Origin: a virus
Taxonomy: Duplodnaviria > Heunggongvirae > Uroviricota > Caudoviricetes
Length of the DNA: 64,000 nt
Strand: one strand, 5' to 3'
Virus record (IMG/VR): IMGVR_UViG_3300005527_000046
Location: 1 to 64,000 of that record
The notes beneath the pieces were generated by a model. It had not been told where the DNA came from and ran no database searches. It saw only the letters and a program-made list of their open reading frames with translations. Below, piece by piece: positions 39,937-59,349 of this stretch. The position numbers were made by a program, and so were the translations under genes. Every line of letters starts with the position of its first letter. The first letter of the stretch is position 1.

Positions 39937-40567
39937 ATTGTTATCATATTTTGGTTCTGATACAATGGTAGCAAATGTAGCCCGTGTCAGTTATCAAAAA
40001 GAAGCTTCTAATTACACTGAACAACAAAATGCTAAGCTTATAAATTATTTATATAGTCATAAACATACTAGTTGTTTTAGACATCCACAACTACAGTTTA
40101 GAGTTAGATGTAGTTTATATGTTGAGCGTCAATTATTTAAGCATCAAGTTGGGATTTCAGTTAACTCAATTAGTGGAAGATATGTTGATTTTAGTGATAG
40201 TTATTACTATATAGATGAGTGGAGAAAACAATCTAAGTCATCTAAACAAGGTAGTGAAGGGTTAATTGAAAATCAGGAAAGAGCTAATCAAATACAAGAT
40301 GAAGTAATTGAGTTTTGTAAAGCTAAATATAAAGAGTTATTAGAATTAGAAGTTGCTAAAGAACAAGCTAGATCAGCACTTCCTTTATCATTAGAAACAG
40401 AGTTTATATGGACTGGTAGCTTTTTAGCTTTTATGCATTTATGCAATCTTAGAATCAAAGATGATGTGCAAAAAGAAACTAGAGATGTAGCAGAGCAAAT
40501 GCTTGAATTAGTTAAAAATATAGAAAGTAATCCCTTTGAATATACTATTAAAGCTTGGGGTTATTAA
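39926..40567 (+). CDS. thyX: flavin-dependent thymidylate synthase ThyX-like protein with variant RHR motif (KHQ)
   Basis: FRVRCSLYVERQLFKHQVGISVNSISGRYV matches the ThyX signature ...CSRAVARQLVRHR-x7-S-x-RY except RHR replaced by KHQ. Confidence 0.55.
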   Translation: MKVELLSYFGSDTMVANVARVSYQKEASNYTEQQNAKLINYLYSHKHTSCFRHPQLQFRVRCSLYVERQLFKHQVGISVNSISGRYVDFSDSYYYIDEWRKQSKSSKQGSEGLIENQERANQIQDEVIEFCKAKYKELLELEVAKEQARSALPLSLETEFIWTGSFLAFMHLCNLRIKDDVQKETRDVAEQMLELVKNIESNPFEYTIKAWGY

Positions 40568-40979: not shown

Positions 40980-42164
40980 ATGACAGATTATAGATACTGT
41001 AAACTTATTATGATTACAGATGATAATCATAATAAGTATTATGAAATGCAGGAAACTAGTGAAAACATACAAATTAAATATGGGCGAGTTGATAGCTCTT
41101 GTATTACTATTACTAAGCCTATAAGTCAGTGGAATTCTTTAATTAAAAGTAAGTTAAAGAAAGGATATAAAGATGTTACTGATTTAGTTGCTATTGTTAA
41201 GGATGACAGTAAACCTAGAACTTTATTGTATAGCCAAGAATTATATGATATTTTTCTTAAAAAGATGATGGATTATAGAGATGGTCTTGTATCTTCTACT
41301 TACAGTGTTAAGGCTAATCAAGTTACTAGAAAGCAACTAGAACAGGCTCAGTTGTACATTAATGAATTAGCAAAAATAAAGACTGATTATGAATTAACAG
41401 AAGAAGATATAAAGAGTATTAATAACTTATTAATACAGTTATATACAGTCATTCCTAGGTATATGAATAAGGTTCAAAACTATTTAATACCTAATATTAG
41501 TCTTAATAACTTAGTACAAAAAGAACAAGATAATCTAGATGCTATTTCTTCTCAAGTTATAGAAGAGATACAGGAAAATACAGATGAGAAAACTACATAT
41601 TCTCCAGCAGAGCAGTTAGGTATAAAGATATCTAAAGTTGATAGTTCACCCACTGAAATTGAATATATCACTAAGCAAATATCCAAAAAGATAAAAGGTT
41701 TGTTTGAAGTAGAAATACCAAAACATAAAAATAAATACAGATCTTATTTAGAGTCTAATGCACAAAAACAACAAGATAACTCTAAATACTTAATACACGG
41801 TACTAGATGTAGTTCTGTTATTCCTATTATTGAGCAAGGCTTAAAGATTAGGCCTAGCGGCAATTATCATTATTCTGGAAAGGTATATGGAGATGGTAAT
41901 TACTTCTCAGAAGTAGTTAATAAATCCTTAGGATATACAGGCAATGATAATGATAAGATATTATTAATATATCAAGTATATATTGGTACTCCTTTTATTT
42001 ATAAAGGATGGTTTAGAGGTAATTCATTTGAACTAAGCTATGATGAATTAAAGAGTAGAGGTTATGATAGTACCTTTGTAAAGGCTGGCAACGGTCTTTT
42101 AAATAGTGAGATTATTGTTTATAAAGAAGAACAAGCTCACCTTAGATATATAATTTGGCTCTAA
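40980..42164 (+). CDS. PARP-like ADP-ribosyltransferase (C-terminal catalytic domain)
   Basis: H-Y-E triad context: LIHGTRCSSVIPIIEQGLKIRP (His), GKVYGDGNYFSEV (Tyr), LLNSEIIVYKEEQAHLRYIIWL (Glu), collinear with PARP catalytic-domain blocks. Confidence 0.55.
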   Translation: MTDYRYCKLIMITDDNHNKYYEMQETSENIQIKYGRVDSSCITITKPISQWNSLIKSKLKKGYKDVTDLVAIVKDDSKPRTLLYSQELYDIFLKKMMDYRDGLVSSTYSVKANQVTRKQLEQAQLYINELAKIKTDYELTEEDIKSINNLLIQLYTVIPRYMNKVQNYLIPNISLNNLVQKEQDNLDAISSQVIEEIQENTDEKTTYSPAEQLGIKISKVDSSPTEIEYITKQISKKIKGLFEVEIPKHKNKYRSYLESNAQKQQDNSKYLIHGTRCSSVIPIIEQGLKIRPSGNYHYSGKVYGDGNYFSEVVNKSLGYTGNDNDKILLIYQVYIGTPFIYKGWFRGNSFELSYDELKSRGYDSTFVKAGNGLLNSEIIVYKEEQAHLRYIIWL

Positions 42165-42789: not shown

Positions 42790-43617
42790 ATGAAGTTAGA
42801 AGTATTTGAAAGAAATTTACATGCTAATGCTTCTATAAAAGTAATAGAAGCGCCAAAGAGTGTAGAAACTATAAAAATAATAAGTAAGCAAGAACCTTCT
42901 TTATTCTTTGAACTAAAGAAACTTATAGGAGTTGAAGCTTACTCTGATACTAGTTTTTTACTATATGTATTAATATCCTTATATGGGTTTCAAAAGATTA
43001 CAGAGCTTTATAAGTTTATAGTTAATCTAATAGCTTTGCCTAAACAAGTGTCAGAGGTTTACAACTTTATAACAAAAGAAGACATTATCCTATTAGATAA
43101 AATTGATGATTTAATGCATCAACTAATGGGTGTTACTGGAGCAGATAGAATAGCTATAGCTAAGATTCATAATGGTACATATGATGTCACTGGAAGTCAT
43201 CAAATGAAGTTTAGTATCATATATGAAATAACTAATAGACTCTCTCCTATTAGACATAACACTCAGAACATTCCTCTTGATTATATAAAAGAAGAAATTG
43301 TTTTAGGCTCTTGGTTAACCTTTGAAAGATATGAAAGAAGCTCTTTAGACTCTTTATGTGATCTTTACTTAGATAAGATTGGCATTAAGGCTAAAGATTA
43401 TAAACTATTAGCTATTAATAAAGTTATATATGGAATATTAGATATTCATTATATTGAGCTACCTGATGTGGACTTTACTCAGAATAAACAACTAGAAAGA
43501 AGAGTCGTTAAAATTACAAAAGAGATTGAAGAGTGTTTAGAAAGTATATTACTAAAAAGAAATTGGGCACAAAAACTATTTAGTAAGACTTTTAAAATAA
43601 ATCCTTTATTTAGATAA
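42790..43617 (+). CDS. hypothetical protein (last gene of the plus-strand block)
   Basis: ORF track; TTGACA-like/TATA-rich promoter-like sequence upstream (42736-42790). Confidence 0.5.
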   Translation: MKLEVFERNLHANASIKVIEAPKSVETIKIISKQEPSLFFELKKLIGVEAYSDTSFLLYVLISLYGFQKITELYKFIVNLIALPKQVSEVYNFITKEDIILLDKIDDLMHQLMGVTGADRIAIAKIHNGTYDVTGSHQMKFSIIYEITNRLSPIRHNTQNIPLDYIKEEIVLGSWLTFERYERSSLDSLCDLYLDKIGIKAKDYKLLAINKVIYGILDIHYIELPDVDFTQNKQLERRVVKITKEIEECLESILLKRNWAQKLFSKTFKINPLFR

Positions 43618-43620
43618 ATT

Positions 43621-43658
43621 AAAAGAAGCTGTTGGTTTAATCATCAACAGCTTCTTTT
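43621..43658. terminator. bidirectional rho-independent terminator between convergent gene blocks
   Basis: A4-AGAAGCTGTTG-loop(10)-CAACAGCTTCT-T4; the 3' strand also encodes the last codons of the minus-strand gene 43637..44416. Confidence 0.6.
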
Positions 43659-44416
43659 AATTCTTCTCTATGTGTTTTTATTGTTTGTTTGTCTACTTGA
43701 TGTAGGACTGGTTGAGATATTCCTCCTAATAATAAAGCATCCCATAAAGAACTCTTCATCTTTATTATTGTTATTAAATCTCTAGCTACTATTGGATTAT
43801 AAGCTCCAATAGTATTAACTATATCAGCTATAAGTGTTCTCATAGACTGCGCTCTTATTTGTGTTGAAACAAACTTATCTGCTGTTTCAGTTAACTGTCT
43901 CATCTCTTTGAAGAGTTCAATTAATACTTGTTCTTTTGTAGTAGATTTATTTTTAAAAGCTTTATTACCAACTAAGGAAATATCATCTAATAAAGTAGAT
44001 AACTTTTCATATAAGTCTTGATATCTGGAACTTGCATCAAAGATTGATCCAATTTTATTCTCATTTGGTTTTACATATAAACTGTTAGTTTCTTTATATG
44101 TAGTCAACCACTTATCTATATCTTCTGGTGTTATTGTCATTCCAGCTAATGTAGATAAAGAATTAGCCATACTTGCTACTGTCTGTCCTGCTTGATAAAA
44201 CTGAATTAAATAACTGGCCAAACCAGCTTGATCAATTACATTAGTAGGAATAATATTAGGCATGTCTAATTTATTTGATTCTTTTAAATTATCTTCTAAA
44301 TAATCTATGTCTGCTAATATTAGTTGATAAGCTTCTTCTCCAATTCTCTCATCAATAGTTAGTTGATCTCTTAAATCTTGCTTAATCTTTTTAACAAATA
44401 AATGAGCATCAATCAT
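43637..44416 (-). CDS. hypothetical protein
   Basis: ORF track; start overlaps stop of the gene at 44416..44814. Confidence 0.5.
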   Translation of the reverse strand: MIDAHLFVKKIKQDLRDQLTIDERIGEEAYQLILADIDYLEDNLKESNKLDMPNIIPTNVIDQAGLASYLIQFYQAGQTVASMANSLSTLAGMTITPEDIDKWLTTYKETNSLYVKPNENKIGSIFDASSRYQDLYEKLSTLLDDISLVGNKAFKNKSTTKEQVLIELFKEMRQLTETADKFVSTQIRAQSMRTLIADIVNTIGAYNPIVARDLITIIKMKSSLWDALLLGGISQPVLHQVDKQTIKTHREELKEAVDD

Positions 44417-44814: not shown

Positions 44815-44934
44815 GTTTCCTTTATGTTTATGTTTTAAAATCTTTGACTTATTTATATATAAATAATATAAATGCCTATATAGTAAATGATTATACTATA
44901 TAGGCATTTATATTGCAACTAATTATGTGTTAGA

Positions 44935-45993
44935 TTAAATTAACTTAGCTGCTATTTCAGGATGACATAAAGCTAAAAAAGCACAAGGCCTATGAAACTG
45001 ATCTAAGCATGGAGAAGAGTTAGTCATTTGTTTATTTGGAATTTTCTTCTCATACTTTTCTGCAATTATATCTTTATGCACAGAGGTTAGTTGAGATATT
45101 GCTTGCTCTCTAAATGTAGGAACCATCTCAGATAAGATTAGTTTATTACTTCTAAGATTATAAACTCCAATATACTTTGGCTGTTCTCCTGTTAATTCTT
45201 CATATGCGTGACTATACATTAATAGTTGATCATTGTAAGCTATATCAACTTCTTGATAGTCTTGTGCGCCACTCTTATAATCTATAATAGCAATTTGTCC
45301 ATCTTGCAACTCTGCTACCAAGTCTATATAAGCTTCTAGTATTGGCCCATCTTTTCCAGTATTAGGAGTAATAATTACATTTGTTTCTGGTGAAAATGCT
45401 AACTCAACTCCTAGTATTTTCTTAATTCTAGGATCTAGATTAAACTTATTAGCAACCTTTATTACTGTGAGAACTAAGTCAAAAAAGTCTATGTTTTCCC
45501 ATCTACCATCAACTGATCTAATATATCTATTTATATTATCTTGTAAATCTGATAGTTTTAATTTGGCTATTTCTTTTTTCCAAGCGGCTGTCATTTCAGG
45601 TGCTTGTGCTACTGTTCCATCACCCTTTCTAATTGGGAAATTACCTGTATAGCCTTCTGAAGCTCTTTCATATAATTCTTTTATTATGTTGTAATAAGCT
45701 TCTACTTGTTTAATTTGTTCTGTTAAATCATGTACAAATACTTTACTTAATACTTCATTGGTTGAAGAAAGTATAGTTGAATCAGATAGGGTGCAAGGAG
45801 GATTATCTATGCCAATAAAAGGAGAATAGTTATCTTCTAATATCTGGTGTAATGAACTGCCAATTAGTGTGGCTTTAGATAAACTATTATCTCTTAGTTT
45901 ATCTACATATTTATATTTAAATAAGGTAGAACATACATGATATGTTCTAAGGCGGCTTACTGAATAAGTGGCAGATCTTGTAGTGTCAGACAT
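44935..45993 (-). CDS. Cas4/RecB-family PD-(D/E)XK nuclease with putative Fe-S cluster
   Basis: IAIIDYKSG (D-x-K) motif; one N-terminal Cys (YHVCST) plus three C-terminal Cys (SSPCLDQFHRPCAFLALCHPE). Confidence 0.5.
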   Translation of the reverse strand: MSDTTRSATYSVSRLRTYHVCSTLFKYKYVDKLRDNSLSKATLIGSSLHQILEDNYSPFIGIDNPPCTLSDSTILSSTNEVLSKVFVHDLTEQIKQVEAYYNIIKELYERASEGYTGNFPIRKGDGTVAQAPEMTAAWKKEIAKLKLSDLQDNINRYIRSVDGRWENIDFFDLVLTVIKVANKFNLDPRIKKILGVELAFSPETNVIITPNTGKDGPILEAYIDLVAELQDGQIAIIDYKSGAQDYQEVDIAYNDQLLMYSHAYEELTGEQPKYIGVYNLRSNKLILSEMVPTFREQAISQLTSVHKDIIAEKYEKKIPNKQMTNSSPCLDQFHRPCAFLALCHPEIAAKLI

Positions 45994-46036
45994 TATTTGT
46001 GTTGTTTGGTTTATTTGAATATATTATAACATATAT

Positions 46037-49000
46037 TTAGGTATTAATAATTCCATCAATAACTTTAGTTCCTCTCTTTATATTGAACTGTTGTAATGCA
46101 ATTTGTTCACTATCTCTAGAACTTGTTTGTGTAAATTCTAAGGTTGTTTGACCTTTATCTGTTTTTCCTTTAGTAACCTTTGTTGCTGCTTGAATGTTTG
46201 GTGTTCCATCATTTATAAGTTGAATGTGTGGATTAGGTACTATATGACTTCCAACTACATTTAATGCTAAGTTTTTCTTAGTATTAATCTCATTAACATC
46301 ATTAGCCATTTGACCCATCTTAGTACTAACCTCTCCTAACTTAACAATTGCTTCTCTTGTTATAGCGTTTATCTCTGTTGATCCTATAATAGGAGCAGAG
46401 GTTATCTTTCTATTTTCAAGTTCTACAACTCTATTGATCTGACCTTCCCATGCTTGTATTTGTAATCTTTCTGTAACAGACATATATTTAGATACTAATG
46501 CATGATTTAACTTGTCATCCATTCTTGTGTTCCAAAATTGTTTACCTGTTACTAGTTGATTATAAGCTTTACCTCTAATAGCAAATGCAAAGTCCTGAGA
46601 TGGATCAACAGATCCTGGTCCATATCCTTCAGCAGTAGCAGCATATCCAGTCATAGGAGCATCAAAAGATGTAACAAATCTACCAGCAGTCTTTCTGCCA
46701 GTTGGATCATCTAAGGTGTCTATTTGTGCCATCCATTCTTGTTTCATTGCATCATTTACTGTGCCTTGAAATAGAGGATTTCTATAGTCTTTATCCCTAT
46801 ACTTTGTATCATTATATATTTGATTGGCAGGTTTAAATAGATAAGATCCTGGCGCTCCAAACATCTGTGTTGGTAAGTTACTAAGATTAGATGCAAAGTC
46901 ATCTGCTGTCTCAGGACTGTTAAGTATCCAAACAATTTGTACTGCAGTTAATACTAAAGAAGCAACTAAACCCCAAGGTCCTGCTGCTACTCCAGAAATA
47001 GCTTTTAATCCAGCTCCTGCAAATTTTGCACCAGTTACTAATCCTTTAATTGCCATTCCTTGTGCTGTCTTTTGTATTGCAGCGTTTCTTATTGCTGTAC
47101 TAGCACTCTGTATAAGACCTACCTTAGCAACTTGTTCTGTTATCTTAGAAGTGATAGTCTTTGCAACTATAGTTTGTCCAATCTTATTGGCTATAAATGG
47201 AGTTACTAATGTACTACTTAAAGAATCTAATGCCTGTAAACTAGCACCTTCTAATCTGTTATTCTTAGAGTCTAATGAGTGTCCTAAACCAACTCCAAAT
47301 ATTAAAGCACCAATAGCTGCAACTCCCGCATTAATTAGATTGCCTGTCTTTAAGTAGTTAAGAGTTCCTCCAATACCTAAAGCTAAACCTCCAACAATGT
47401 TTATAACTCCACTTTGGTTTTGAATATTTCTTATTACTTGTCTTCCTCCTTGATAAAAGTCATCCATCTTAGAAGTAATATATCCACCCAACTCAGGACT
47501 TAAAGAAGATAGGGATGATCCAGCTAAGTCAAATACACTTCTACCAGCTAAGGTTAAACCAGCTAATCCTATAGAAACTCCCCAAGTTTTACTTGCTTTG
47601 AATAATGCTATAGATGATGCAGCTAAAGTAATACCTACAGCACCAGCAGTAATTCTTCCTCCAGTTCCATTATTCTTAAATAGTAAATCATAGCCAAAGA
47701 AACCAGCAGCTAGTCCTCCTATTCCAGGAATAATACTCTTCTGAATTGACTGATTCATTAATAATGTACCAAAGAATAAAGCCCCCCATATATTGTCAAA
47801 GCTTTCTTTGGCCATTTCTTCTCTGGCCATTTCTTTTTCTCTTTCTCCTGTTTTACTAGAAGCTACACTAGCTGCAGCTCTAAATGTTAATAAGTTAGTA
47901 CTAACAAACATAGCCATTTGATAGCCATTCATTAGTACTGTTCCCATTCTAGATAAACCCTCTAGAAATGTTAAACCTGCAGTAGTCTGTAATGCTTTAG
48001 GTGGCACTCCTACTGGCATACTTCCCTGAAGTCCAGATCTAGTATTTTGTTTTATATCAAGTTCAATAGCTTTTGCAACTTCTTCTTGTAACTCTTTAGT
48101 GGGGACATTAAACATACCTCCACCATATTTTCTTACATTGTCTAATACTTCTTTAGATGCATCTGTTGCTTCTAAAGTCATTCTGGTTATTAGATCTCTG
48201 TTAGTTCCTCCACTAACTATATTTAATAATCTATCAAAGACAGCAGTTAAACCAGTTCTCTTTGTTGAAATGATTGTGGTTAATCTATCTTTAATCTGTT
48301 CTCTAAGATGTAACTTGTTATTAAATCTTTGATCTACTGATACTTTATTAACATAATCTTCATCAATTATTGCTGTGCTGTTTAACTCCCTTCTAACAGA
48401 ATTAGTATAAATATTGTCTGCATCTTGTATAAAAGCTGCTTTAATTCTTTCATCAATAACATCATAGTAACTATCAATAACAATATCAAATTTGGCAGCA
48501 TATACTTCTGTCATAAGATCAATAGAATGTCTCATATTAGGGCTTCTATCTTTGCCAAATATATTGAAACCTCCTCCAAATTTTCCTGCCGCTTTAGATA
48601 TGAATTTATCAGCTTTAGCTTCTAATAAATCATCATAAGTAAAGCCTTTATAATATTTATCTACAAAGTCTGCTTTAGCTATAGGAGTTTTAGATTCAGC
48701 ATTATAAGCATCATATTGACCCTCTAAATAAGCATCAAGAACTTGCTTATTAGTATAATCATCTAATAAGTGTTCTGTTATTTTATGTGTTGTATGATTA
48801 TAAGTTATAGTTTCATCTAGGGTTTCTGAGAACATTACAGATTTAAATTCTCTAGCATGAGTTCTAGCTATTCTGTCATCTCTAGTAGATAATCTAGTTG
48901 TTTGACTTGGTGCTGATCTAGTTTCTAACTCATCATAAAAGTCATTTAATCTTGTTATTTGTTGAGTGTGTGCTTGTCCATAGTTCTTTGAATAGTCTCT

Positions 49001-52000
49001 ATAAGCACTATCAAACTTCATAGATAAAGCTCCACTTAATTCATTGATTTGACTTGTATATTTCTTAGCTTGATGATCTGTTAAGCCTTCAGCTATTGCA
49101 AATACAACTTGTGTTCTTCTTAGTAATAAGAATTTACCTGCCGCCGCTTTTAATTCTTCTGCTTCATATAAATGTTTAGAGAACCACTTTCCTTCATCAA
49201 AGTACTTATGTTGTTGTTCCCATAATAATGTATTGTCTTTTGTTACTTGACCTTGACTGGCTTTAGTGGCAGCAACAACTGATATAGCAGCAGTAACTAA
49301 ACCAAGAGAACCTATTCCAACTGCCATTATAGGCAGCCACATAAATGGTGGAAGAGCTTGAGTTAATCCTTGCAATGAAGATGTGTCTCTAACTTTTGTT
49401 AGAAATTCTCCAGCTCTTTCAAAGAAGCTTTTATTTGAATCATATTGATTTGCTGTTGATTGAATTGCAATTCCTTGCATCTCCATAAAAGCATTTTCAT
49501 TATCACTGTCTTGTATAGACATTTTAGCTGCTATAAAAGGATTAGAGTTAGATGCTAAACCACCTATTTGTTTTACAGTTATTTCACCTCCCATAAAGAA
49601 ATTTTGATTTATCTCTCCTAATCCAGTCTGACTTCCATTGCTTGATATATCTTTTAATGCTTTATAGAACTTACCTTGCATATCTGGTGAAGCTATGTTC
49701 ATATTATTCATTAAGGTATATAAAGCTATGTTTACATTAGTACCATAAGATAATGCTTGTAGTCTCTTATATCTTTGGTTGAGAGACATTGCTAAAGCTT
49801 TATTAGTAGTCATAGCTTCTAATGTATATTTATTAGGAGATGTAAACTTAATTCTATCTTTACCTGATCTTGTTGGTTGGCTATATACAGCAGTAATAAT
49901 GTTAGAAGCAAACTGTCTTAGTTGTGCTTGATTGTGTCCAGCAGCATCATCAATTCCTCTTAAATTAGCAATAATATTCTGTGCTAAGAAACCTTTCTTA
50001 GCTAATTCTTGTAGTCCAAATACAGATGACATACTATACATTGCAGATGAGAAATCTTGTGATGCTGATTGTATTTGGAAATAGTCTCTAAGTCTTACAT
50101 CACTATCATCTGGTCTTATTGTTATACCACCAACAGCCACACCAATAAAGGTATTTGGTGAATTTACAATTATTAAATTACTCAATTGTTTTAGTGAGTT
50201 GTTTATTGCTCCTTTAGTTGTACTGTCTGGATTTATTAAGAATTCACCTTTACTATTATGTAAATTAGGTCCTACTAAACCTTTAGCAATGTCATAAGAA
50301 TGGGCTCTATCATACTTTGTTTGTAGTTTAACAAAGTCTACTACACCTTTTCTAAAGTTTGCCCAAGGTGTGTTGCTGTCTTCATCTGCTCCTATTAAAG
50401 CATCTTGAAAGTCCTTATAACCCATGCCTTGAGATGCCCAATTTAAGCCATGAAATGTTAGTCCAAGTAAGGCTGTAGTTCCGCCTAATCTAGCCCATCT
50501 TTCTATATGAACTCTATTACTAGCAGATCTATTTATACTCATTCCTTTTAACACTGCTGAGGCTGGTTGATTGTTAGCAGGATTACTAAACTTATCTAAC
50601 TCAGCTAATACTGCTGAAGCTTGGTTATTCTTTATAATTGAGTTTAAGTCTGTACCAGCACTTATATCTAAGGACTGTAAACCTTTATAGACATTATTAG
50701 ATCTATTACTTGTTATTTGTTTAATGTTTGAATATGGATCACTTACATTAAAAGCATTTTTGAATATCTTTCCTTGTGCATCTTCTACTGCTTGAATAAT
50801 AGGAGAGTTGCCCATTCCTTCTTCTATTATTATTTGTACTTCTCTTGCTTCCATGTTTAACTTATATGTTTCATACTTTAAGCTTAGAGATTGTATAAAG
50901 CCAATATTCTTCTTTCCTATTGGCACTTGTTGTAGTCTTTCTACAACAGTTAATCTATTCCTAAATCTCTCAACAATTTGTTCAGGATTAATATCTGCAA
51001 AGATTAAACTCTTAGGATTAAAGGATGTAACTCCTGCTGTTAATGCGAATAAGGTTGCACCAAAAGCAACAGTTGTCATTCTTCTTGTATTGTCATATTT
51101 ATCTTCTGTTTGTTTTGTTAAATCTCCAAATGCTATTTCTGGATTTACTTTGCCTGATGTTGGATCTGTTATAAAATGATTCCACAAAGCTCCAACAGCT
51201 AGTAAGCCTAATCCTTTTCCTACTTTATTTTCTAATGTTCCTGTTTGGAATACAGCACTTTGTTTTACAAAGCCTCCAAACTTGCCTAATGTATTTCTAT
51301 ATAAACCTTTAAGACTGTTATTAGAATACATCCAAGCAACTAAAGGATCTATCTTTGTTTTGTCAAATCTTGCACTTGTAATATTTAATTCTGACTCTAA
51401 CATTGCTAGTCTTCTAGAGGCTGCTATTGTACCTTTAGCATAACTAATACCTCCTATAAGAGCAGCTCCTGCCATAATAGAAGCACCTCTTAAAGCAAAG
51501 TTTCCATCTTTATCTTCTTTCTTATTTGTAAAAGGTTGAGATAATGTATTAATAACACTATATAAGTGATTACCAATAGCACCTCCCATAAAGGCACTAA
51601 ATACAACAGGCACAAATGATGTTGATCTTAATCTTAAGCCTGGCATCCTAAAGTCACCAGTTGTTAGATTAAGAGACTGAGCAGCTATATAGAAAGGCAA
51701 TGTAGCAATCCCTAAGAACTTATCTCTGGCAGCCCTTGTTGATTGTGTTATTAAAGATTCAGTGGCAACAACAGTTCCAGTTGATTTAAGTATTTGATGG
51801 TTTCTTCCCCATATTCTATTCCTTACTAAGGTGTTAGATACTCCTATACCAACTCCACTCCATAAGGCTACTTGGCTATAGATGTTATAATAATCTTGTA
51901 AGCTTAAGGAGTCCTTATTCCCTTCATTAAGTATTAGACCAGTTCCTAGATAACCAGTTTTAATGGTTACATTATCAGCACTCTTAGCATTCATTGCAAA

Positions 52001-55000
52001 TGCAATTGGAAAGCTTACATTAATAGGTGCTACTCCAACAGCAGGAGGTCCTTGTAAACCTAAGTTAACAGTTGTATAACTACTACCATTACTATCTACT
52101 ACCTTTTTAATTACACTGTAATATTGAAATATAGGCAGAGGAGATTGTGTAGCAGTTACATATGCAGTGCTACCTTTTTGAGATGATGTAATTGGATTAA
52201 TAATCTTACCTAAAGCTACTGCTAATAAGGCAGCATTAACTTCAAGTGGTGATATAGAATCACTAATAGAAGCTGAACCACCATCTGAGGTTCTAGCTTG
52301 ATCTATTCTTTTATTAACATGTTCTACATAACTTCCAAGTCTAGCTATAGCTGTTTGATTTGTTTCATCTAGTTTTGGCCCATTTATATCACCTTGGAAA
52401 GGGCTTAGTCTGTTCCAATAAGCTATTCCTAATCCTATAAGACTAATTGCTGTAGTTGTAATAGGATTTCTACCAAATAGGTTAGCCGCTCCTTGTAATC
52501 CTTTTAGTAATGTATTACCTAACATACTTGTAACTTTGTAGTTACTATATCCAAGTTTACTACCACTAACCATATGTAATGAGTGAGCCATATTATCTAT
52601 AGTTGTAGTAACACCAAATGCTATGGCAGGAGCAGCTAAAAATGCAGTAGATAAAACAGCAGAACCCATTAAGTTTCTTTCATTGTTAATGGTAGAACTA
52701 ATCACATATCTAGCAGTTTGCATTGCTGCTAAGGTTAAGCCTAAACTAATAGAGAAAGATGTCCAGTTCTTTGCAACTTTAGCATTAAGAGCACTTAGTC
52801 CTGTTATATTTCCATTTTCCCTTACAACATTAAAACTTAATTCTTTACCACTAATTAATTTAACTGTAACTGCATTTTTACCAGCAGACAAAGTTGTAAG
52901 TTCAGCCATAGTTGCAGACTGAACAGCTTGACCATTTACTTCTGCTATATTATCTAATAAAGCTTGTCCAGTAAACATCTTTCCATGTATTTCAGGTGTG
53001 CTAGTAGATGCATGATCATACGCCCATCTAACTATTCCAGCCATTGTAACTAAACTTTGAGTACCTAATACAAAGTTAGCAACATGATCATTAGCACCAG
53101 CCATCTTTACTAATTCAGCAGCAGAGAAGAAGTTAGTGCTTTGTAATTCAATTGATGTGTTAGTTGTTCCTCTATTTAGTTGTATTTGAGCTAAGGTAGA
53201 TGTTAGTAAGGAGGCTCCAGTTGATTGAGCAAACTCTGTTAATACTAATTGAGGTATGAATAAAGCACCAATAATCCACTTAGCAGCAGCTAATTTAGTA
53301 CTAGATATCTTCATACCTACATAACTATTTCCCTTGTCTAAATGGTTTAATAAGAAACCAACACCACCTGAGCTGTGTGTTTTATTAGCATAAGTATATA
53401 AAGCATCGTCTAAAGTTATAGTTCTAAGGCCTACTCTTTTGCTTGATAAAGCTTTCCATTTAGCCTGATATGTTGCTTCATTGTCTAATAATTCTTCCAC
53501 TGATACCGCATCTAATGCATTAGTATTAAACACATCAAAACCTCTAGCAGATCTATTCTTTGCAGAATCTATAGAGTTATTTGTTCTTACTTTTACATTA
53601 TCTTCTAAGTTTATTTCTGCTTGTGAGTATGTTTTACTAATCTTACTAATGTCTTCTAAGTCTCTTTTAGATTGGCCACCTCTAGTATTAAAAGATAATA
53701 TAGATCTGGTCATTGTTGCTATATGATTCATTATTCTGAAGGCAGGATAGGAGGCTTTAGTACCATTCTCACTGAACAACATAAACTCATTAGCTGCGCC
53801 CCAAAAACCTTGATTGTTTAATGATGCATTAACATATCTGGCAAAACCTTCAATGTCTAATAAGTTACCAATCATAGGAGCTGTTACATTGTCTTTTCTG
53901 CCAGCAAATATTCCCCATGCCCAAGGCATAGGGACTAAGTTGATTACTCCTTGTATCTTCTTAGCAAGCATCATGTTTCTTTCTATAGAAACATTGGTTA
54001 TCTTTAATTCATATTGTTTGTTAACTGCATCATTAATCTCCTTAACAACATCAGATGTTGGTTTGATAGTTGCATCATTACCTCTAAGAATATCTATGGC
54101 TCTGGGTATATTAAAAGTTTTACCAGAAGCTGTTGTTATGTTTACTGTGTTCCAATCAATTGATTTGGCTCCACTAGTTATAACTTCTCCAGCTCTATCA
54201 ATAATCTTTATGTCAGCAGGTGATTGTAATACTTCTAGGTAATCATTAGTAGCAGAAATTAAGGCTTTAGATTTATTAGAGCCTAATGTATATGGATTAA
54301 TCTTACTTATTAAGAATTCTCTTGCAGTTGCTGAGAAGAAGAAACCACCTCTTTGTCTTTGATAGTTATCTAAATAATAAAGAGAGAATGTAGGATTATC
54401 TAATGAATAGTAAGCAGTTGTTGCACCCTTAACTTGTCTTTCAATGACAGACATTTTAAAGCCAATATTATCATTGTCTGTTCCTCCTAATGCCCACTTA
54501 GCAGCTTTATTTGTATCAGCAGCTTTAATAAGAGCCTCTTGACTATTAAGTAAAGCTCTAGAAGCCATTGCTTTAAGTGGCTCTCCAACTGCTAGATAAA
54601 CTCCAATAGAGGAGGCGGTAGCCAATACAGTAGCAGCACTATTTGCAAGTAAATCTTGAAAGAAACTTGTCTTAGTTGTAAAGTAATTTTCTCCATCATC
54701 TTTGTAGCTTCTTAGTACTGGATTATTAGTTAAATATGATTGATCAATGAGCGCACCAACTGCACTAAATAGAGAAGGAATTGGTCCTCTTTCTTCTTGT
54801 AATACTCTACCCATACCATTAGGTATAAAGAAGAATTCATTTATTCTACTCATTAATGATGGTGAATTGACAGCAAAATCAAATGCTTTAGCTACTGCTA
54901 CTTCATCTCTTGATAAGTTATTATTAGTCTTACTAGCTCTAAGTATGCCTTCATATGTTCCCATATCTTCAGCATCAACAACAGATGTAAACCTACCTGA

Positions 55001-56323
55001 TGCTCTCATAGAAGCATTATATCTAGCTAATTCAAATTGTTGTGAATGAGTTTTCTTATTACTAATAACTAAACCTCTATATTCCTTATCAGTGTCATAT
55101 AAAGGAGCTAATAAAGGATTGTGTATACCCTTAGCTCTAGCATTAATAACAGCCTTACTCTCAAAACTACTGTTTATATCATCTAAGTTTACATGTAATA
55201 ATCCTTTACCATCTTTAGGCGCATCATATACATTTTGTAATATTTGTTCTTCTACTTCTGGATCTAGATGAGGAAATAACCTTTTCATTCCTGTTAGTTC
55301 TCTAATCTGTCTACCATCTGCAAGTTTATAATCCTTCCAATTATCTTTTACATTTTGACTGTTAGGCATTATAACAGCAATAGTTTTTGTGTCTTTTGTT
55401 ATTGTTGTTTGTCCTGGCTCTAATACAACGGCTACCTTCCATAAAACTTTAGGTACTTCTACTCCATTAATACTCTCAACATAACCATTCTTACCAATAC
55501 CTCCTTTACCAGCACCACCTGTTATAATTTGAATCTCTCTTTCGGTATAACCAAATAAAGGAATGCCAAAAGGTCCTTTACCTTCATGTACTTTATTGTT
55601 TAAATAGTGTTCTAAATCTGCCCAAGGACCTGCATTAACTTCATGTGCTTGTGCTAACATGTTAGTCATTACATATGTAGAAGAGTTAATTCCTACAGTA
55701 CTTGTAAATGCAGCAGAGTTAGCCAAGTGACCTCTATCAAATCCTTTAAATCCTGTAAAGTCAACCTTCTTAAAGTTAGACGGTAGATTTGTATCATTTC
55801 TAAAATCATTCTGTCTACTAACATTACCTAAGTTATTTTTTGTCAGTTTAAAAGCAACCCAATTAGGCCTGCCTTTTTCATTGTTGTAACTAGTAACAAA
55901 TTGAGATCTGCCTTCTACTTTATTTTCTAATATGTAGTTATTACTGTCAGATGTATTAGCTCCCGTTGGATTGCCAATAAGTGATAGATTAGAATTGTTT
56001 TTATAGTTATAGCTGTCATTGCCAATATAACTTTGTTCTACTATTCTTTTATTTGTCTCTACATGTACATCTAAACCAGTTAGATCAAAAGAATAACCAA
56101 CCTTAGGAGCATTTCCATAGCCTCTTAGATAATCATTGTATCTACTTTTATTATCACTAAATGCAGAGAAGTTTCCTACTCTATCCTCAAATAACTTTCC
56201 TTTATATTGCCAATCCCAATTACCTTTGTTATAAGATGATGTTGCATCCTTAATAGCAAATGAGCCATAACCTAAAGTTGTGGCTCCTATTCCAGTGGCA
56301 ATTGCAATATTAAGTAAACTCAT
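46037..56323 (-). CDS. giant virion-associated protein (3428 aa): N-terminal signal peptide + DNA/RNA non-specific endonuclease (His-Me finger, DRGH) domain, long Gly/Ala/Ser/Thr-rich multi-TM tape-measure-like core
   Basis: Uninterrupted 10.3-kb ORF; N-terminus MSLLNIAIATGIGATTLGYGSFA; FKGFDRGHLANSAAF...N...GPWADLE matches the Serratia-nuclease (Endonuclease_NS) active-site region; many hydrophobic G/A-rich segments; sits next to terL. Confidence 0.7.
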   Translation of the reverse strand: MSLLNIAIATGIGATTLGYGSFAIKDATSSYNKGNWDWQYKGKLFEDRVGNFSAFSDNKSRYNDYLRGYGNAPKVGYSFDLTGLDVHVETNKRIVEQSYIGNDSYNYKNNSNLSLIGNPTGANTSDSNNYILENKVEGRSQFVTSYNNEKGRPNWVAFKLTKNNLGNVSRQNDFRNDTNLPSNFKKVDFTGFKGFDRGHLANSAAFTSTVGINSSTYVMTNMLAQAHEVNAGPWADLEHYLNNKVHEGKGPFGIPLFGYTEREIQIITGGAGKGGIGKNGYVESINGVEVPKVLWKVAVVLEPGQTTITKDTKTIAVIMPNSQNVKDNWKDYKLADGRQIRELTGMKRLFPHLDPEVEEQILQNVYDAPKDGKGLLHVNLDDINSSFESKAVINARAKGIHNPLLAPLYDTDKEYRGLVISNKKTHSQQFELARYNASMRASGRFTSVVDAEDMGTYEGILRASKTNNNLSRDEVAVAKAFDFAVNSPSLMSRINEFFFIPNGMGRVLQEERGPIPSLFSAVGALIDQSYLTNNPVLRSYKDDGENYFTTKTSFFQDLLANSAATVLATASSIGVYLAVGEPLKAMASRALLNSQEALIKAADTNKAAKWALGGTDNDNIGFKMSVIERQVKGATTAYYSLDNPTFSLYYLDNYQRQRGGFFFSATAREFLISKINPYTLGSNKSKALISATNDYLEVLQSPADIKIIDRAGEVITSGAKSIDWNTVNITTASGKTFNIPRAIDILRGNDATIKPTSDVVKEINDAVNKQYELKITNVSIERNMMLAKKIQGVINLVPMPWAWGIFAGRKDNVTAPMIGNLLDIEGFARYVNASLNNQGFWGAANEFMLFSENGTKASYPAFRIMNHIATMTRSILSFNTRGGQSKRDLEDISKISKTYSQAEINLEDNVKVRTNNSIDSAKNRSARGFDVFNTNALDAVSVEELLDNEATYQAKWKALSSKRVGLRTITLDDALYTYANKTHSSGGVGFLLNHLDKGNSYVGMKISSTKLAAAKWIIGALFIPQLVLTEFAQSTGASLLTSTLAQIQLNRGTTNTSIELQSTNFFSAAELVKMAGANDHVANFVLGTQSLVTMAGIVRWAYDHASTSTPEIHGKMFTGQALLDNIAEVNGQAVQSATMAELTTLSAGKNAVTVKLISGKELSFNVVRENGNITGLSALNAKVAKNWTSFSISLGLTLAAMQTARYVISSTINNERNLMGSAVLSTAFLAAPAIAFGVTTTIDNMAHSLHMVSGSKLGYSNYKVTSMLGNTLLKGLQGAANLFGRNPITTTAISLIGLGIAYWNRLSPFQGDINGPKLDETNQTAIARLGSYVEHVNKRIDQARTSDGGSASISDSISPLEVNAALLAVALGKIINPITSSQKGSTAYVTATQSPLPIFQYYSVIKKVVDSNGSSYTTVNLGLQGPPAVGVAPINVSFPIAFAMNAKSADNVTIKTGYLGTGLILNEGNKDSLSLQDYYNIYSQVALWSGVGIGVSNTLVRNRIWGRNHQILKSTGTVVATESLITQSTRAARDKFLGIATLPFYIAAQSLNLTTGDFRMPGLRLRSTSFVPVVFSAFMGGAIGNHLYSVINTLSQPFTNKKEDKDGNFALRGASIMAGAALIGGISYAKGTIAASRRLAMLESELNITSARFDKTKIDPLVAWMYSNNSLKGLYRNTLGKFGGFVKQSAVFQTGTLENKVGKGLGLLAVGALWNHFITDPTSGKVNPEIAFGDLTKQTEDKYDNTRRMTTVAFGATLFALTAGVTSFNPKSLIFADINPEQIVERFRNRLTVVERLQQVPIGKKNIGFIQSLSLKYETYKLNMEAREVQIIIEEGMGNSPIIQAVEDAQGKIFKNAFNVSDPYSNIKQITSNRSNNVYKGLQSLDISAGTDLNSIIKNNQASAVLAELDKFSNPANNQPASAVLKGMSINRSASNRVHIERWARLGGTTALLGLTFHGLNWASQGMGYKDFQDALIGADEDSNTPWANFRKGVVDFVKLQTKYDRAHSYDIAKGLVGPNLHNSKGEFLINPDSTTKGAINNSLKQLSNLIIVNSPNTFIGVAVGGITIRPDDSDVRLRDYFQIQSASQDFSSAMYSMSSVFGLQELAKKGFLAQNIIANLRGIDDAAGHNQAQLRQFASNIITAVYSQPTRSGKDRIKFTSPNKYTLEAMTTNKALAMSLNQRYKRLQALSYGTNVNIALYTLMNNMNIASPDMQGKFYKALKDISSNGSQTGLGEINQNFFMGGEITVKQIGGLASNSNPFIAAKMSIQDSDNENAFMEMQGIAIQSTANQYDSNKSFFERAGEFLTKVRDTSSLQGLTQALPPFMWLPIMAVGIGSLGLVTAAISVVAATKASQGQVTKDNTLLWEQQHKYFDEGKWFSKHLYEAEELKAAAGKFLLLRRTQVVFAIAEGLTDHQAKKYTSQINELSGALSMKFDSAYRDYSKNYGQAHTQQITRLNDFYDELETRSAPSQTTRLSTRDDRIARTHAREFKSVMFSETLDETITYNHTTHKITEHLLDDYTNKQVLDAYLEGQYDAYNAESKTPIAKADFVDKYYKGFTYDDLLEAKADKFISKAAGKFGGGFNIFGKDRSPNMRHSIDLMTEVYAAKFDIVIDSYYDVIDERIKAAFIQDADNIYTNSVRRELNSTAIIDEDYVNKVSVDQRFNNKLHLREQIKDRLTTIISTKRTGLTAVFDRLLNIVSGGTNRDLITRMTLEATDASKEVLDNVRKYGGGMFNVPTKELQEEVAKAIELDIKQNTRSGLQGSMPVGVPPKALQTTAGLTFLEGLSRMGTVLMNGYQMAMFVSTNLLTFRAAASVASSKTGEREKEMAREEMAKESFDNIWGALFFGTLLMNQSIQKSIIPGIGGLAAGFFGYDLLFKNNGTGGRITAGAVGITLAASSIALFKASKTWGVSIGLAGLTLAGRSVFDLAGSSLSSLSPELGGYITSKMDDFYQGGRQVIRNIQNQSGVINIVGGLALGIGGTLNYLKTGNLINAGVAAIGALIFGVGLGHSLDSKNNRLEGASLQALDSLSSTLVTPFIANKIGQTIVAKTITSKITEQVAKVGLIQSASTAIRNAAIQKTAQGMAIKGLVTGAKFAGAGLKAISGVAAGPWGLVASLVLTAVQIVWILNSPETADDFASNLSNLPTQMFGAPGSYLFKPANQIYNDTKYRDKDYRNPLFQGTVNDAMKQEWMAQIDTLDDPTGRKTAGRFVTSFDAPMTGYAATAEGYGPGSVDPSQDFAFAIRGKAYNQLVTGKQFWNTRMDDKLNHALVSKYMSVTERLQIQAWEGQINRVVELENRKITSAPIIGSTEINAITREAIVKLGEVSTKMGQMANDVNEINTKKNLALNVVGSHIVPNPHIQLINDGTPNIQAATKVTKGKTDKGQTTLEFTQTSSRDSEQIALQQFNIKRGTKVIDGIINT

Positions 56324-56334
56324 TTTTTTATTAG

Positions 56335-57162
56335 TTAGAAAGAAGAAACAGTATTTTGTAAGAATGAACTATTATTAATATAAATGTTCTGAGGAAATAA
56401 ACTATTCTTAAATAGTATTTGTTTAATATCAACTGGCTTTACATAGTTAATTGTAAACACTTGGCCCAGAGGAACATTAGTTGTTAGAAGAGTATCAGTT
56501 GTATTTTTATAGTTTATTGCTGCTTGTATAAGTGCATGTTCTGTTAGAGTTGTATCTACTGTAATAGTGTTACTAATTGAATATGTAACTGGATTTACAG
56601 TTGGAGATGTAACAGTATATAGTACATGTATATCAGGATGATCTAATAAGGATATGGGCGCTCCAGTAGATGTTAGAGATAAGCTTAAAGACTTGAAAGA
56701 TCTTGATAAATTTAAGTATTGATAATTTACTAAATATCTATTAGATGGATGTGGTATTAACCAATACTCAGTCTTTAATAGTCTATGTCTTAGTGGTGGT
56801 CTTTTATATGATTTAGGAAATATCATAGGCTGCCATTCCCAGTATTCAACAATATAACAAGAGCCTTCTCCCCATCCAACTGTAGGTTGTAACCCTACTC
56901 TTATTTGATTTTTATATATGCCTTCCCAAGGAATATTATAAACAAAGGTTCTAGGAATATACTCAGTATCATTTCTAATAGATGTTGGTGGTTTTATTTT
57001 TAAGTAATATCTAGGGGCTAATTTTATTGGTTTAGTTACTAGATTTAATATGTTATCAGTTGTTAATGGTGTTTGTAGTGTGCCTACTGGAATAGGAATG
57101 ATAGGGTCTACTGATTCTTCTATAAATTCCTCTACTGTAAATATAACTGGTGTCTTAATCAT
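56335..57162 (-). CDS. hypothetical virion protein
   Basis: ORF track; abuts terL. Confidence 0.5.
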   Translation of the reverse strand: MIKTPVIFTVEEFIEESVDPIIPIPVGTLQTPLTTDNILNLVTKPIKLAPRYYLKIKPPTSIRNDTEYIPRTFVYNIPWEGIYKNQIRVGLQPTVGWGEGSCYIVEYWEWQPMIFPKSYKRPPLRHRLLKTEYWLIPHPSNRYLVNYQYLNLSRSFKSLSLSLTSTGAPISLLDHPDIHVLYTVTSPTVNPVTYSISNTITVDTTLTEHALIQAAINYKNTTDTLLTTNVPLGQVFTINYVKPVDIKQILFKNSLFPQNIYINNSSFLQNTVSSF

Positions 57163-59349
57163 TTAATAGCCTCTATATGTATTTCTTTCTTTATGTTGCT
57201 GTAATCTATTTATAGAGCTTCCTACAGTTATTTTTCTAGGAGTATTAATATTAATAAGTTTAGGAGCTTTTAGTTCAATCTTATTAATTAGATTACAATT
57301 AGAACCATATGTATAAGCTTCAAATACTGATACTGCTAATGCATCTGGTAAGTCCTTTGTACCATATGGGTGAACTATTTGACCATTATCTTTAATAACT
57401 AAAGAAGGTAAATCTGTTTTTATAAGAGCTGTCCAAGGACTATCAATAGGAAATAATACATCTCCTCTTTGTATTAATTGTCTTAATAAGTTGTAGTAAG
57501 CTAATTGTTTTTCTCTAGAGAATGAAACAATTTTAGTATTAAGTCCTCTACTATATAAGTTTTGATTGAGAGAAGAAGAGTTAAAACCATCAAATGATAT
57601 AGACATGATGTTCATATATTGGCTTATATATATTAGTATTTCTTCTATATTTATATAAGATACTTCTCTAAATTTACCCTTCTCATCAATGCCTGGTGTC
57701 CAACATGCAATGCCAATAACTTCTATTTGTCCTCTATTATTAATAGTAGCTATAGACATAGCAGTAGCATCTTTCTTTAAACTTGTATCTACATGTATAA
57801 AACAAGCTGTATTTACATTAGATATTCTATTGATTTTAATGCCTCTATAATGTCTATCTTCTATGTCTAAGTTATATTCCATTACATCTATTGAAGACTG
57901 TAAAGAACATAATTTATCTAATAAATCAGCTTCTAGAAAGGAATTATCATTACTGCTTCTTATATTTTCATATTCTAATCTTGCTCTTTTAGGTTCTGAA
58001 GAATAATCAGATATAATGTCTGGATTACTTCTAGTTATAGTAGGATTAACATCAAAACAAGTTAGTTCTAATATAAGCGAGTAAGGGTCACCAGCAGCTT
58101 GATGTTTTAATGTTACCATTGGATCTGTAAAAGACCATGCAGAAGATACTACTATTTTTTTACCTTCTCCTTTGAATCTGTTGAGTGCGCGGCCCACATT
58201 TTGATAAATGTTAAGTCCTGTGTTTAAACCATCACCAGTAGTTTCAAAACGAGCCATTTCATCTATAAATAATAACTTTAAGTTATATCCTACAAGTGCT
58301 TTTGAATTTGTATGCTTAGCATAAAGAGATATAAATTTATCAGGACATCTAATCTCATCACTAAGTACTACTATTTTCTTCTTTTTAATCAGGGATTTAA
58401 AAAAGTTAGAACTATCAAGAAATGATTTAATAGCTTTGAAACTAGTTTCTAATACTTGTGCTTCTGTTTGTGCTATAGCAAAAAGGGCAATTGGAGAGAA
58501 TGACATTAGACCATAATGTAAACCTGGATCAGGCAATGAAATTAATTTGTAAAATTCATATAGACAAATAATAGAACTCATTGATGATTTACTGCTGTTA
58601 TGACTAACAATAGAATTGCCTATTATATGAGTGTCTTCTACTTCAAATCCAATAATGTTTTTATATCCAATAGCTTTAACTTTAACTACTTCTTCCCATT
58701 CAATAACATACTCTGTGTTGGAAGAGGCAAATGTTAAATTGTTTAATACAGCTACTTTATCTTTCTTATTTAAGTCTTTTATTTGTATCCAACAAGGGCC
58801 AAATGCAGTTTTTACTAAGTAAGGATGATCACTTGTTACTTCCTCTGTTTTACCTGATTTAAGTGTAATACTATAAGCTTTTTGTAAGCCCTGATCCCAT
58901 GTTCTAAATTTGTTAGTTGTAAATACTTTATAAGTTATTGAATCAACTGTATAAATGTATATATCTTCATCTTTTCTCTCATGCAATTCTTTATATGTAA
59001 TAGTGCCAACAGAGGTAATTATGTTAGAAGTTTCTACTGGGCAGCCACGTCCTGCTTCTAGTATTAAGTTTGTATACTTTCTTCCATTGATCCAATTAGT
59101 CTTTCCTTGTTCTCTCCATCTGTCTAATATATCTATATGTACTTGATCTAGTGGCTCATTATAGATGGCTTTTAATATTGCCTCTTGTGTGGGCCATAGC
59201 TTCGTTGTAGAGTCATTAAATAGTATTGAATTAGCAAAGGTAACAATGTCTATATTGCTACCTTGTGGAGTGTTTATTGAGGCTTCTGTGAGATCTGTTA
59301 ATAGATCATTTAAGAAGTCTTTAGTTGTATAATCTGCTTGTGGTCGCAT
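57163..59349 (-). CDS. terL: terminase large subunit, interrupted by a mini-intein in the ATPase P-loop region
   Basis: Walker B KLLFIDEMARF; C-terminal RNaseH-like nuclease region IHVDTSLKKDATAMSIATINNRGQIEVIGIACW; extein junction LILEAGRG / SSKSS forms the P-loop. Confidence 0.75.
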   Translation of the reverse strand: MRPQADYTTKDFLNDLLTDLTEASINTPQGSNIDIVTFANSILFNDSTTKLWPTQEAILKAIYNEPLDQVHIDILDRWREQGKTNWINGRKYTNLILEAGRGCPVETSNIITSVGTITYKELHERKDEDIYIYTVDSITYKVFTTNKFRTWDQGLQKAYSITLKSGKTEEVTSDHPYLVKTAFGPCWIQIKDLNKKDKVAVLNNLTFASSNTEYVIEWEEVVKVKAIGYKNIIGFEVEDTHIIGNSIVSHNSSKSSMSSIICLYEFYKLISLPDPGLHYGLMSFSPIALFAIAQTEAQVLETSFKAIKSFLDSSNFFKSLIKKKKIVVLSDEIRCPDKFISLYAKHTNSKALVGYNLKLLFIDEMARFETTGDGLNTGLNIYQNVGRALNRFKGEGKKIVVSSAWSFTDPMVTLKHQAAGDPYSLILELTCFDVNPTITRSNPDIISDYSSEPKRARLEYENIRSSNDNSFLEADLLDKLCSLQSSIDVMEYNLDIEDRHYRGIKINRISNVNTACFIHVDTSLKKDATAMSIATINNRGQIEVIGIACWTPGIDEKGKFREVSYINIEEILIYISQYMNIMSISFDGFNSSSLNQNLYSRGLNTKIVSFSREKQLAYYNLLRQLIQRGDVLFPIDSPWTALIKTDLPSLVIKDNGQIVHPYGTKDLPDALAVSVFEAYTYGSNCNLINKIELKAPKLININTPRKITVGSSINRLQQHKERNTYRGY
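58597..59043 (-). other. mini-intein (149 aa, Hint domain only) within terL
   Basis: Begins with Cys (CPVETSNIIT, block A), TxxH block B (VTSDHPY), ends NIIGFEVEDTHIIGNSIVSHN followed by +1 Ser. Confidence 0.6.

Follow-up and report, generated by a model that had tools for sequence, protein, structure and literature searches.

A superfamily of giant cysteine-free proteins with an exchangeable N-terminal nuclease-type module in Ma-LMM01-like aquatic myoviruses

The stretch of DNA analysed here (the window; 64,000 nucleotides, positions 1 to 64,000 of IMG/VR record IMGVR_UViG_3300005527_000046, a virus of the Caudoviricetes) contains a giant open reading frame (ORF) on the minus strand (46037..56323), encoding a protein of 3428 amino acids (aa) that has a nuclease domain near its N-terminus and not a single cysteine. 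By its sequence, the protein belongs to a superfamily that we define here, the Ma-LMM01 gp120-like proteins (PHROG 29513). The architecture of this superfamily is fixed: an optional N-terminal extension, one nuclease-type module, a core, a hydrophobic C-terminal cluster and a C-terminal domain. At one position in this architecture three unrelated nuclease-type folds (Endonuclease_NS, SNase and phospholipase D (PLD)-like) substitute for each other. As the interchangeable folds are unrelated, it would be the enzymatic activity, and not the fold, that has been selected. We estimate at roughly one in two the probability that the giant protein is a carrier, incorporated into virions and leaving them by way of the tail, with an exchangeable nuclease as its head. 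The Endonuclease_NS domain was already known, as was PHROG 29513 as an uncharacterised family; the description of the superfamily is new.

The ORF starts with ATG and the identical 3428-aa protein was called on 24 metagenomic contigs, the largest of 228 kb; the reading frame is therefore real and an assembly artefact was rejected. An earlier reading of the window by a model that saw only the sequence and its ORFs (the original prediction) was thus correct in describing a single 10.3-kb ORF. Its description of the composition also held: Gly, Ala, Ser and Thr together account for 27-41% of each 200-aa block, approximately 13 hydrophobic 19-mers are present, and the AlphaFold prediction, of low confidence, is mostly helical. 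The G + C content of the giant gene (32-35% over 46001-56000) is higher than elsewhere in the window (approximately 28%), which is probably due to the Gly/Ala/Ser/Thr-rich composition of the protein and not to a foreign origin.

The only domain recognised by Pfam in the protein was Endonuclease_NS (PF01223), with an envelope at aa 133-345 (55289-55927, minus strand). The match (E 2.1e-33, 116 bits against a cutoff of 23) spans positions 15-213 of the 223 positions of the profile, and the best solved relative is NucA of Anabaena (1zm8/2o3b, E ~7e-34). In the active-site region (aa 196-238; 55610..55738, minus strand) the DRGH motif is found at aa 196-199, and H199, N221, N230 and E238 align with the active site of NucA. 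The domain shares with NucA and the Serratia marcescens nuclease the histidine of the DRGH motif, the Asn that binds the metal and the Asn/Glu pair. These four residues are invariant in 13/13 family members that carry Endonuclease_NS; across these 13 relatives, identity is 54% in the nuclease module and 49% in the core. The active site is intact and under selection, and to judge from the alignments the domain is an ordinary Endonuclease_NS member, in agreement with the Serratia-type DNA/RNA non-specific endonuclease region that had been predicted. However, NucA and the Serratia nuclease are free, secreted enzymes of approximately 250 aa, whereas here the domain forms the head of a 3428-aa protein without cysteine and without a classical signal peptide. 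NucA also has a paired inhibitor, NuiA, whereas no NuiA-like inhibitor was detected among the scanned neighbours of the giant gene, which downstream are a PD-(D/E)XK gene and ORFs without a Pfam match.

To delimit the family, the core (aa 396-1100) was used as the query of an exhaustive hidden Markov model search of 1.84 billion representative proteins, clustered at 50% identity. The result was 51 clusters, which with few exceptions consist of giant proteins (2250-5089 aa). In a word-indexed homolog search, 19 relatives of full length (3427-3555 aa) were retrieved, from contigs that measure up to 257 kb; a search of the same type based on the 705-aa core alignment yielded a single fragment. 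Among isolated phages, megablast found no near relatives of the giant gene and tblastn matched only the Ma-LMM01 group of Microcystis phages and Microcoleus phage My-WqHQDG. The Ma-LMM01 homolog is gp120 (2898 aa), a member of PHROG 29513, which also matches the window protein (E 1.5e-21). The My-WqHQDG protein (4151 aa) shares at least four collinear BLASTP blocks with the window protein, from aa 481 to 3388. Both proteins, annotated as 'hypothetical protein', have a core identity to the window protein of only ~22-29%; they nevertheless have the collinear core blocks, zero cysteines and a nuclease-type module directly ahead of the core. The gp120 gene follows terL and a small ORF, as the window gene does, and the My-WqHQDG gene lies near a PD-(D/E)XK gene. 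The modules themselves differ: that of gp120 is a divergent PLD-like module with HxK and HxN motifs, that of My-WqHQDG is a canonical HKD module, and that of the window protein is Endonuclease_NS. The superfamily belongs to Ma-LMM01-like aquatic myoviruses, and several members are found on contigs of approximately 200 kb or more.

The conserved core of the window protein (aa 396-3428; 46040..55138, minus strand) is collinear with gp120 and with the 4151-aa My-WqHQDG protein. Within it, the superfamily alignment has four conserved blocks with sharp signatures, all given here on the minus strand. Block 1 (aa 401-700; 54224..55123) matches PHROG 29513 and has the signature G..N ... G.S.F...A..N ... 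GLG...N ... G.GR.YK.E.G..PS..G..G..LD. Block 2 (aa 1351-1500; 51824..52273) reads V.A.Q...P..Q ... G.Q..P..G ... P, and block 3 (aa 2001-2200; 49724..50323), the best-conserved block of the superfamily, reads N..G.T.R..G..Y.Q.Q..D.S.A.YS. Block 4 (aa 3151-3300; 46424..46873) is a conserved C-terminal domain. It is preceded by a Gly/Ala-rich, transmembrane-like hydrophobic cluster (aa ~2860-3135; 46919..47746), and nearly every superfamily member has a cluster of strongly hydrophobic segments at this relative position, 300-450 residues ahead of its C-terminus. The core of the superfamily, of approximately 2500-3000 aa, is predicted to be mostly helical. Pfam and PDB searches with the core (aa 396-3428) gave no match, and a PDB-sequence profile search with the alignment of the whole family returned nucleases only, with nothing for the core. 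AlphaFold2 models of aa 396-1100 (10 sequences) and aa 1995-2230 (40 diverse sequences) had a mean predicted local distance difference test score (pLDDT) of 45 and 62, respectively, with the most conserved motif of the latter below 50; these core models give no reliable fold. Foldseek of the low-confidence core model against viral structures found nothing at E <0.001. In the literature, we found no paper that describes this family or nuclease-bearing giant virion proteins, so that the original remark that the architecture is not commonly described was a fair one.

An exchange of the nuclease was seen among the close relatives of the window protein (the window clade, 19 proteins), the cores of which are 46-70% identical. 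In this clade conservation extends over aa 1-85 and from aa 396 to the end, whereas the slot in between (aa 86-395; 55139..56068, minus strand, delimited by Pfam and the clade alignments) occurs in two unrelated versions: Endonuclease_NS in 13/19 proteins and a PLD-like module of approximately 370 aa in the other six. The latter contains HxK and HxN motifs and is weakly PLD-like (Pfam PLDc_2, E 0.005; hhalign against canonical modules, E 5e-4 with a probability of 30%). The same module is present in Ma-LMM01 gp120 (E 5e-46). Among the 51 clusters Endonuclease_NS was found in four, all within the window clade, and SNase (PF00565) in approximately 20 (4/4 representatives confirmed, Pfam E 1e-8 to 1e-17). 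A canonical PLDc_2 module was confirmed in 4/4 representatives (E 1e-12 to 1e-21) and was also present in the Microcoleus phage protein (E 1e-9). The three folds are each known from a family of non-specific nucleases; for the PLD-like modules nuclease activity has to be presumed, because the PLD superfamily also includes phospholipases.

In all these proteins the nuclease-type module lies approximately 70-200 aa before the core, even behind N-terminal extensions of 1000-2000 aa. Such extensions, present in the long relatives P0033, P0034, P0036, P0038, P0039 and P0041, carry HExxH motifs and extra hydrophobic segments ahead of the PLD-like module. The longest member, P0033 (5089 aa; L009 10001-25270), has an SGNH/GDSL hydrolase (Pfam Lipase_GDSL) in its extension. 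The long relatives are multi-enzyme versions of the same carrier.

Ahead of the slot, the leader of the window protein (aa 1-85; 56069..56323, minus strand, from alignments and hydropathy) contains a Gly/Ala/Thr-rich helix of weak hydrophobicity and, after it, the motif WDWQYKG...SDNKSRYNDYL; it is conserved only in the window clade. The start of the protein had been described as signal-peptide-like. A hydrophobic helix does exist there, and one precedes the nuclease in several other clades as well, but the hydrophobicity is moderate (Kyte-Doolittle 19-mer average of 1.3-1.5) and in the window protein the stretch lacks a preceding basic residue. Most superfamily relatives start straight at the nuclease domain, without an N-terminal signal or anchor. 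A classical Sec signal peptide was rejected in view of the weak hydrophobicity and its absence from most relatives.

A second regularity of the superfamily is the near absence of cysteine. Thirty-four other ORFs of the window contain on average 1.16% cysteine, from which ~40 residues would be expected in the giant protein instead of the observed 0 in 3428. Every family member has 0-2 cysteines, including the proteins of 5089, 4151 and 2898 aa. The ejected internal proteins gp15 (0/747) and gp16 (0/1318) of phage T7 and the vRNAP (gp50) of phage N4 (0/3500) have none either, and neither have the tape measures gpH of lambda (0/853) and Sit of P1 (0/1140). Cysteine is present in tail, fibre, portal and TerL proteins of the same reference phages, and in other large structural proteins of Ma-LMM01. 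As cysteine is absent from the compared proteins that exit through the tail, its avoidance marks a class of proteins that leave the virion via the tail channel. The avoidance is not universal, DarB of P1, which is injected from the head, having 9 cysteines in 2255 aa, nor does it tell tape measures apart from other proteins that are ejected. N4 gp51 is likewise free of cysteine.

The position of the gene is conserved as well. In Ma-LMM01 the terminase (gp118) and a small ORF (gp119) are followed by gp120, with which a structural operon of approximately 55 kb on the plus strand ends. The order terL, an ORF of approximately 270 aa, giant gene was found in all contexts that were visible: in the window, in Ma-LMM01, and in two contigs distant from the window, one with an SNase-type member (P0022) and one with the 5089-aa member (P0033). 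In all four a PD-(D/E)XK gene is also found near the giant gene; the My-WqHQDG record shows the giant gene and the nearby PD-(D/E)XK gene, with the other genes unannotated there. In the window, the gene for the large terminase subunit (57163..59349, minus strand, 728 aa) is close to the giant gene, as predicted, but not immediately adjacent: a 275-aa ORF (56335..57162, minus strand) intervenes. This conserved neighbour has no Pfam or PHROG match and is weakly similar to Ma-LMM01 gp119 (E 3e-4). Its equivalents range from 194 to 323 aa (268 aa in one of the distant contigs, 323 + 194 aa in the other), and its product could serve the giant protein as a chaperone, adaptor or inhibitor. Signals of a strong promoter or terminator were not detected between terL and the giant gene. 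The conserved downstream neighbour, a PD-(D/E)XK exonuclease gene (44935..45993, minus strand), probably marks the start of a replication/recombination module.

From this evidence we infer the location in the virion, the ejection, the compartment that is reached and the substrate as follows. The giant protein would be produced late, at the same time as the products of the structural and packaging genes, and become part of the virion. At infection, it would exit the particle via the tail channel in an unfolded or extended form, after which the core and the C-terminal hydrophobic cluster would engage the cell envelope; the conservation of this cluster points to membrane engagement. The N-terminal nuclease, a Mg-dependent enzyme of the beta-beta-alpha-metal type, would in this way be placed in the periplasm or cytoplasm of the host and would cut nucleic acid of the host or of competitors as soon as infection begins. 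Endonuclease_NS, SNase and PLD family members are classically extracytoplasmic enzymes. As most superfamily members lack a signal peptide, release from the virion would explain how such enzymes reach their site of action. SNase requires calcium at levels that the cytoplasm does not reach, and the cell that makes it would thereby be spared. The injected nuclease effector of the original prediction has thus found real, though indirect, support in the placement of the gene at the end of the structural operon, the near absence of cysteine in approximately 50 clusters and the replacement of the nuclease by two other folds, with presence in the virion being the part that is still presumed.

Several points weigh against this reading. 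A literature search found no virion proteome for any member of the family (Ma-LMM01, MaMV-DC or MaMV-DH01). The core had no sequence or fold similarity to known ejection proteins, either in the PDB profile search or by Foldseek with the low-confidence models. The absence of cysteine is not specific, since the injected DarB contains nine and some ordinary proteins contain none. The PLD-like modules could be phospholipases instead of nucleases. The DNA of the phage itself should be at risk from a non-specific nuclease synthesised in the cytoplasm, and the scan of the neighbouring genes gave no inhibitor. Finally, according to the Ma-LMM01 transcriptome paper, the terminase belongs to the 'middle' transcription class and not to that of the late head and sheath genes; gp120 is not mentioned in the main text of that paper.

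The transcription class is compatible with an explanation in which the giant protein is not part of the virion at all, but is made during infection and inserted into the host membrane, where its nuclease would break down the DNA of the host or that of competing phages as it enters (superinfection exclusion), or where the protein would assist in lysis. The many hydrophobic segments, the hydrophobic helix ahead of the nuclease in the window clade and several others, and the normally extracytoplasmic nature of the nuclease families would all suit such a protein. We nevertheless regard it as unlikely. Most members have neither an N-terminal signal nor an anchor, neither the 3000-5000 residues nor the strict avoidance of cysteine is explained, and a gene that closes the structural and packaging operon even in very distant phages fits a component of the particle better.

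Quite improbable, in our view, is that the giant protein is the tail tape measure, setting the length of the tail and being expelled at infection, with an enzymatic domain at its N-terminus. P1 Sit and T5 pb2 are tape measures with wall-degrading domains, and they resemble the giant protein in being long, helical and cysteine-free, with C-terminal hydrophobic segments and an embedded enzyme, and in being expelled at infection, the last of these being predicted here. Also in keeping with a tape measure are the Gly/Ala/Ser/Thr-rich composition, the presence of hydrophobic segments close to the C-terminus and, as in lambda gpH, the absence of cysteine. The differences lie in the position of the gene, the size range, the lack of a tape-measure profile match and the presence of a nuclease instead of a wall hydrolase. 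No tape-measure family was matched in Pfam (E up to 1) or in the PHROGs (E up to 0.01). The gene comes after terL, as the last of the operon, and in Ma-LMM01 it is approximately 37 kb away from the sheath gene; in that phage gp093 (623 aa) fills the canonical slot between the tube-like and the Phage_base_V spike genes and is a positional candidate for the tape measure. Profile scans (PHROG, Pfam) of the Ma-LMM01 candidates gave singleton families or nothing decisive, and the tail module lies outside the window, so that a separate tape measure cannot be shown for the window phage. At ~1.5 A per residue, proteins of 2898-5089 aa would specify tails of 430-760 nm, whereas 260 nm has been reported for MaMV-DH01. 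Moreover, the differences in length within the family are mainly due to the N-terminal enzymatic extensions (200-2000 aa) and not to a repetitive ruler region. The tape-measure-like core that had been proposed was thus not supported, and the position of the gene disfavours this function, as the size of the protein may also do.

It is very improbable that the protein is an external appendage of the virion, such as a long fibre or decoration, whose nuclease would clear extracellular DNA in mucilage or biofilm and so give the phage access to the cell surface. An exposed protein could well be free of cysteine and draw on extracellular nuclease families, the DUF4815 and PHROG 877 proteins encoded upstream of terL look like tail or fibre components, and one long relative has the SGNH/GDSL hydrolase and HExxH motifs in addition. 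However, the protein is predicted to be mostly helical, with transmembrane-like Gly/Ala-rich segments and without the beta-rich repeats of fibres, and no fibre, collagen or receptor-binding domain was found in the Pfam and PHROG searches. A polymorphic toxin with an immunity gene (including the MuF-toxins) was rejected, as the variable module is N-terminal and no immunity gene was detected downstream.

If the giant protein is indeed a virion-delivered carrier, its likely mode of action would most resemble that of the ejected proteins of the N4 vRNAP and T7 gp16 type and of DarB-like effectors packaged in the head. N4 vRNAP and T7 gp15 and gp16 are delivered through the tail at infection. They too are very large, encoded with structural genes and entirely free of cysteine, and N4 vRNAP and T7 gp16 likewise carry an enzymatic domain (an RNA polymerase and a transglycosylase, respectively). 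These are podovirus proteins, whereas the gp120-like family occurs in myovirus-type genomes and has a non-specific nuclease as cargo. There is no sequence or fold similarity between the two groups, and the virion location that is established for the N4 and T7 proteins is predicted for ours.

The polyvalent proteins, P1 DarB and MuF-toxin fusions (PMC5512222) are comparable in being very large and encoded among virion genes, with effector enzymes fused to a part for delivery or packaging, and in exchanging effector domains between relatives. Polyvalent proteins, however, have several effector domains per polypeptide, whereas the window protein has one recognisable domain, and Pfam detected none of the markers of that class (MuF, DarB-type methylase-helicase, MPTase, ParB-like DNase) in it. 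In the giant family, furthermore, the effector is N-terminal and three nuclease-type folds interchange. SNase, phospholipase D and cyanophages go unmentioned in the survey of polyvalent proteins by Iyer et al. 2017 (PMC5512222).

The remainder of the window, which has a G + C content of approximately 28% and derives from a large phage, is organised in two blocks. A plus-strand block (1-43.6 kb) contains genes for nucleotide metabolism and replication (ThyX, dUTPase-like, PARP-like, homing endonucleases). On the minus strand, from 64 kb to 43.6 kb, a PHROG 877-type protein and several small ORFs are followed by TerL, the 275-aa ORF and the giant gene, and then by the PD-(D/E)XK exonuclease and two small ORFs; a DUF4815 protein is encoded beside the PHROG 877-type protein, just outside the edge of the window. 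Exactly where the two blocks converge a hairpin with a 20-bp stem is present (43617-43662), and a second long, AT-rich hairpin (44866-44913) lies directly after the PD-(D/E)XK gene; both look like terminators. The sign of the GC skew switches at approximately 44 kb.

Within the plus-strand block, a 394-aa ORF (40980-42164) had a precomputed Pfam match to PARP (ADP-ribosyltransferase). It is surrounded by ThyX (39926-40567), a NUMOD3 homing-endonuclease-like ORF (39394-39936), a dUTPase-like ORF (38399-38977), an HNH ORF on the minus strand (37059-37400), which is missing from one compared contig, and a ClpP-like ORF (36235-36789). The terL gene of the window is interrupted by a mini-intein of 149 aa (aa 103-251; 58597-59043, minus strand), which starts with Cys103 and ends with His250-Asn251, followed by Ser252; the Pfam Intein_splicing match is weak (E 1.6e-6). 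The flanks are contiguous with respect to Ma-LMM01 TerL, aa 33-101 and 249-676 aligning to 30-97 and 96-540, respectively, from which it follows that the insert splits a P-loop-like GRG|SSKS motif. The TerL encoded beside the 5089-aa relative (1294 aa) has an intein signal too.

The family-level regularities, namely the fixed architecture, the exchange among three nuclease-type folds and the avoidance of cysteine, are solid and surprising; the biological role is what we deduce from them. Mutual replacement of three unrelated folds at a fixed position is a rare evolutionary line of evidence for function. The strict avoidance of cysteine may, with P1 DarB as an exception, serve as a simple marker in genome scans for proteins that pass through the tail channel. 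The gp120-like proteins occupy 5-7% of the coding capacity of their phages and are conserved from low-GC, freshwater-type metagenome phages to the cultured Microcystis phages that serve as models for bloom control. As Ma-LMM01 and the MaMV phages are in culture, their role is directly testable. The proteins that phages are known to inject include RNA polymerases, ADP-ribosyltransferases and anti-restriction proteins. If the giant protein is delivered by the virion, nucleases would join this list, and the attack on host or competitor nucleic acid would be immediate and independent of transcription. More tentatively, and with considerable doubt, the family may represent a new class of phage-delivered weapon, in which a carrier is threaded out of the particle and anchored in the envelope, and an interchangeable nuclease destroys the nucleic acid of the host or of rivals before any phage gene is expressed. 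If so, it would be the first family of injected nuclease effectors in tailed phages, and one that is widespread in aquatic myoviruses, including the Microcystis phages that control blooms.

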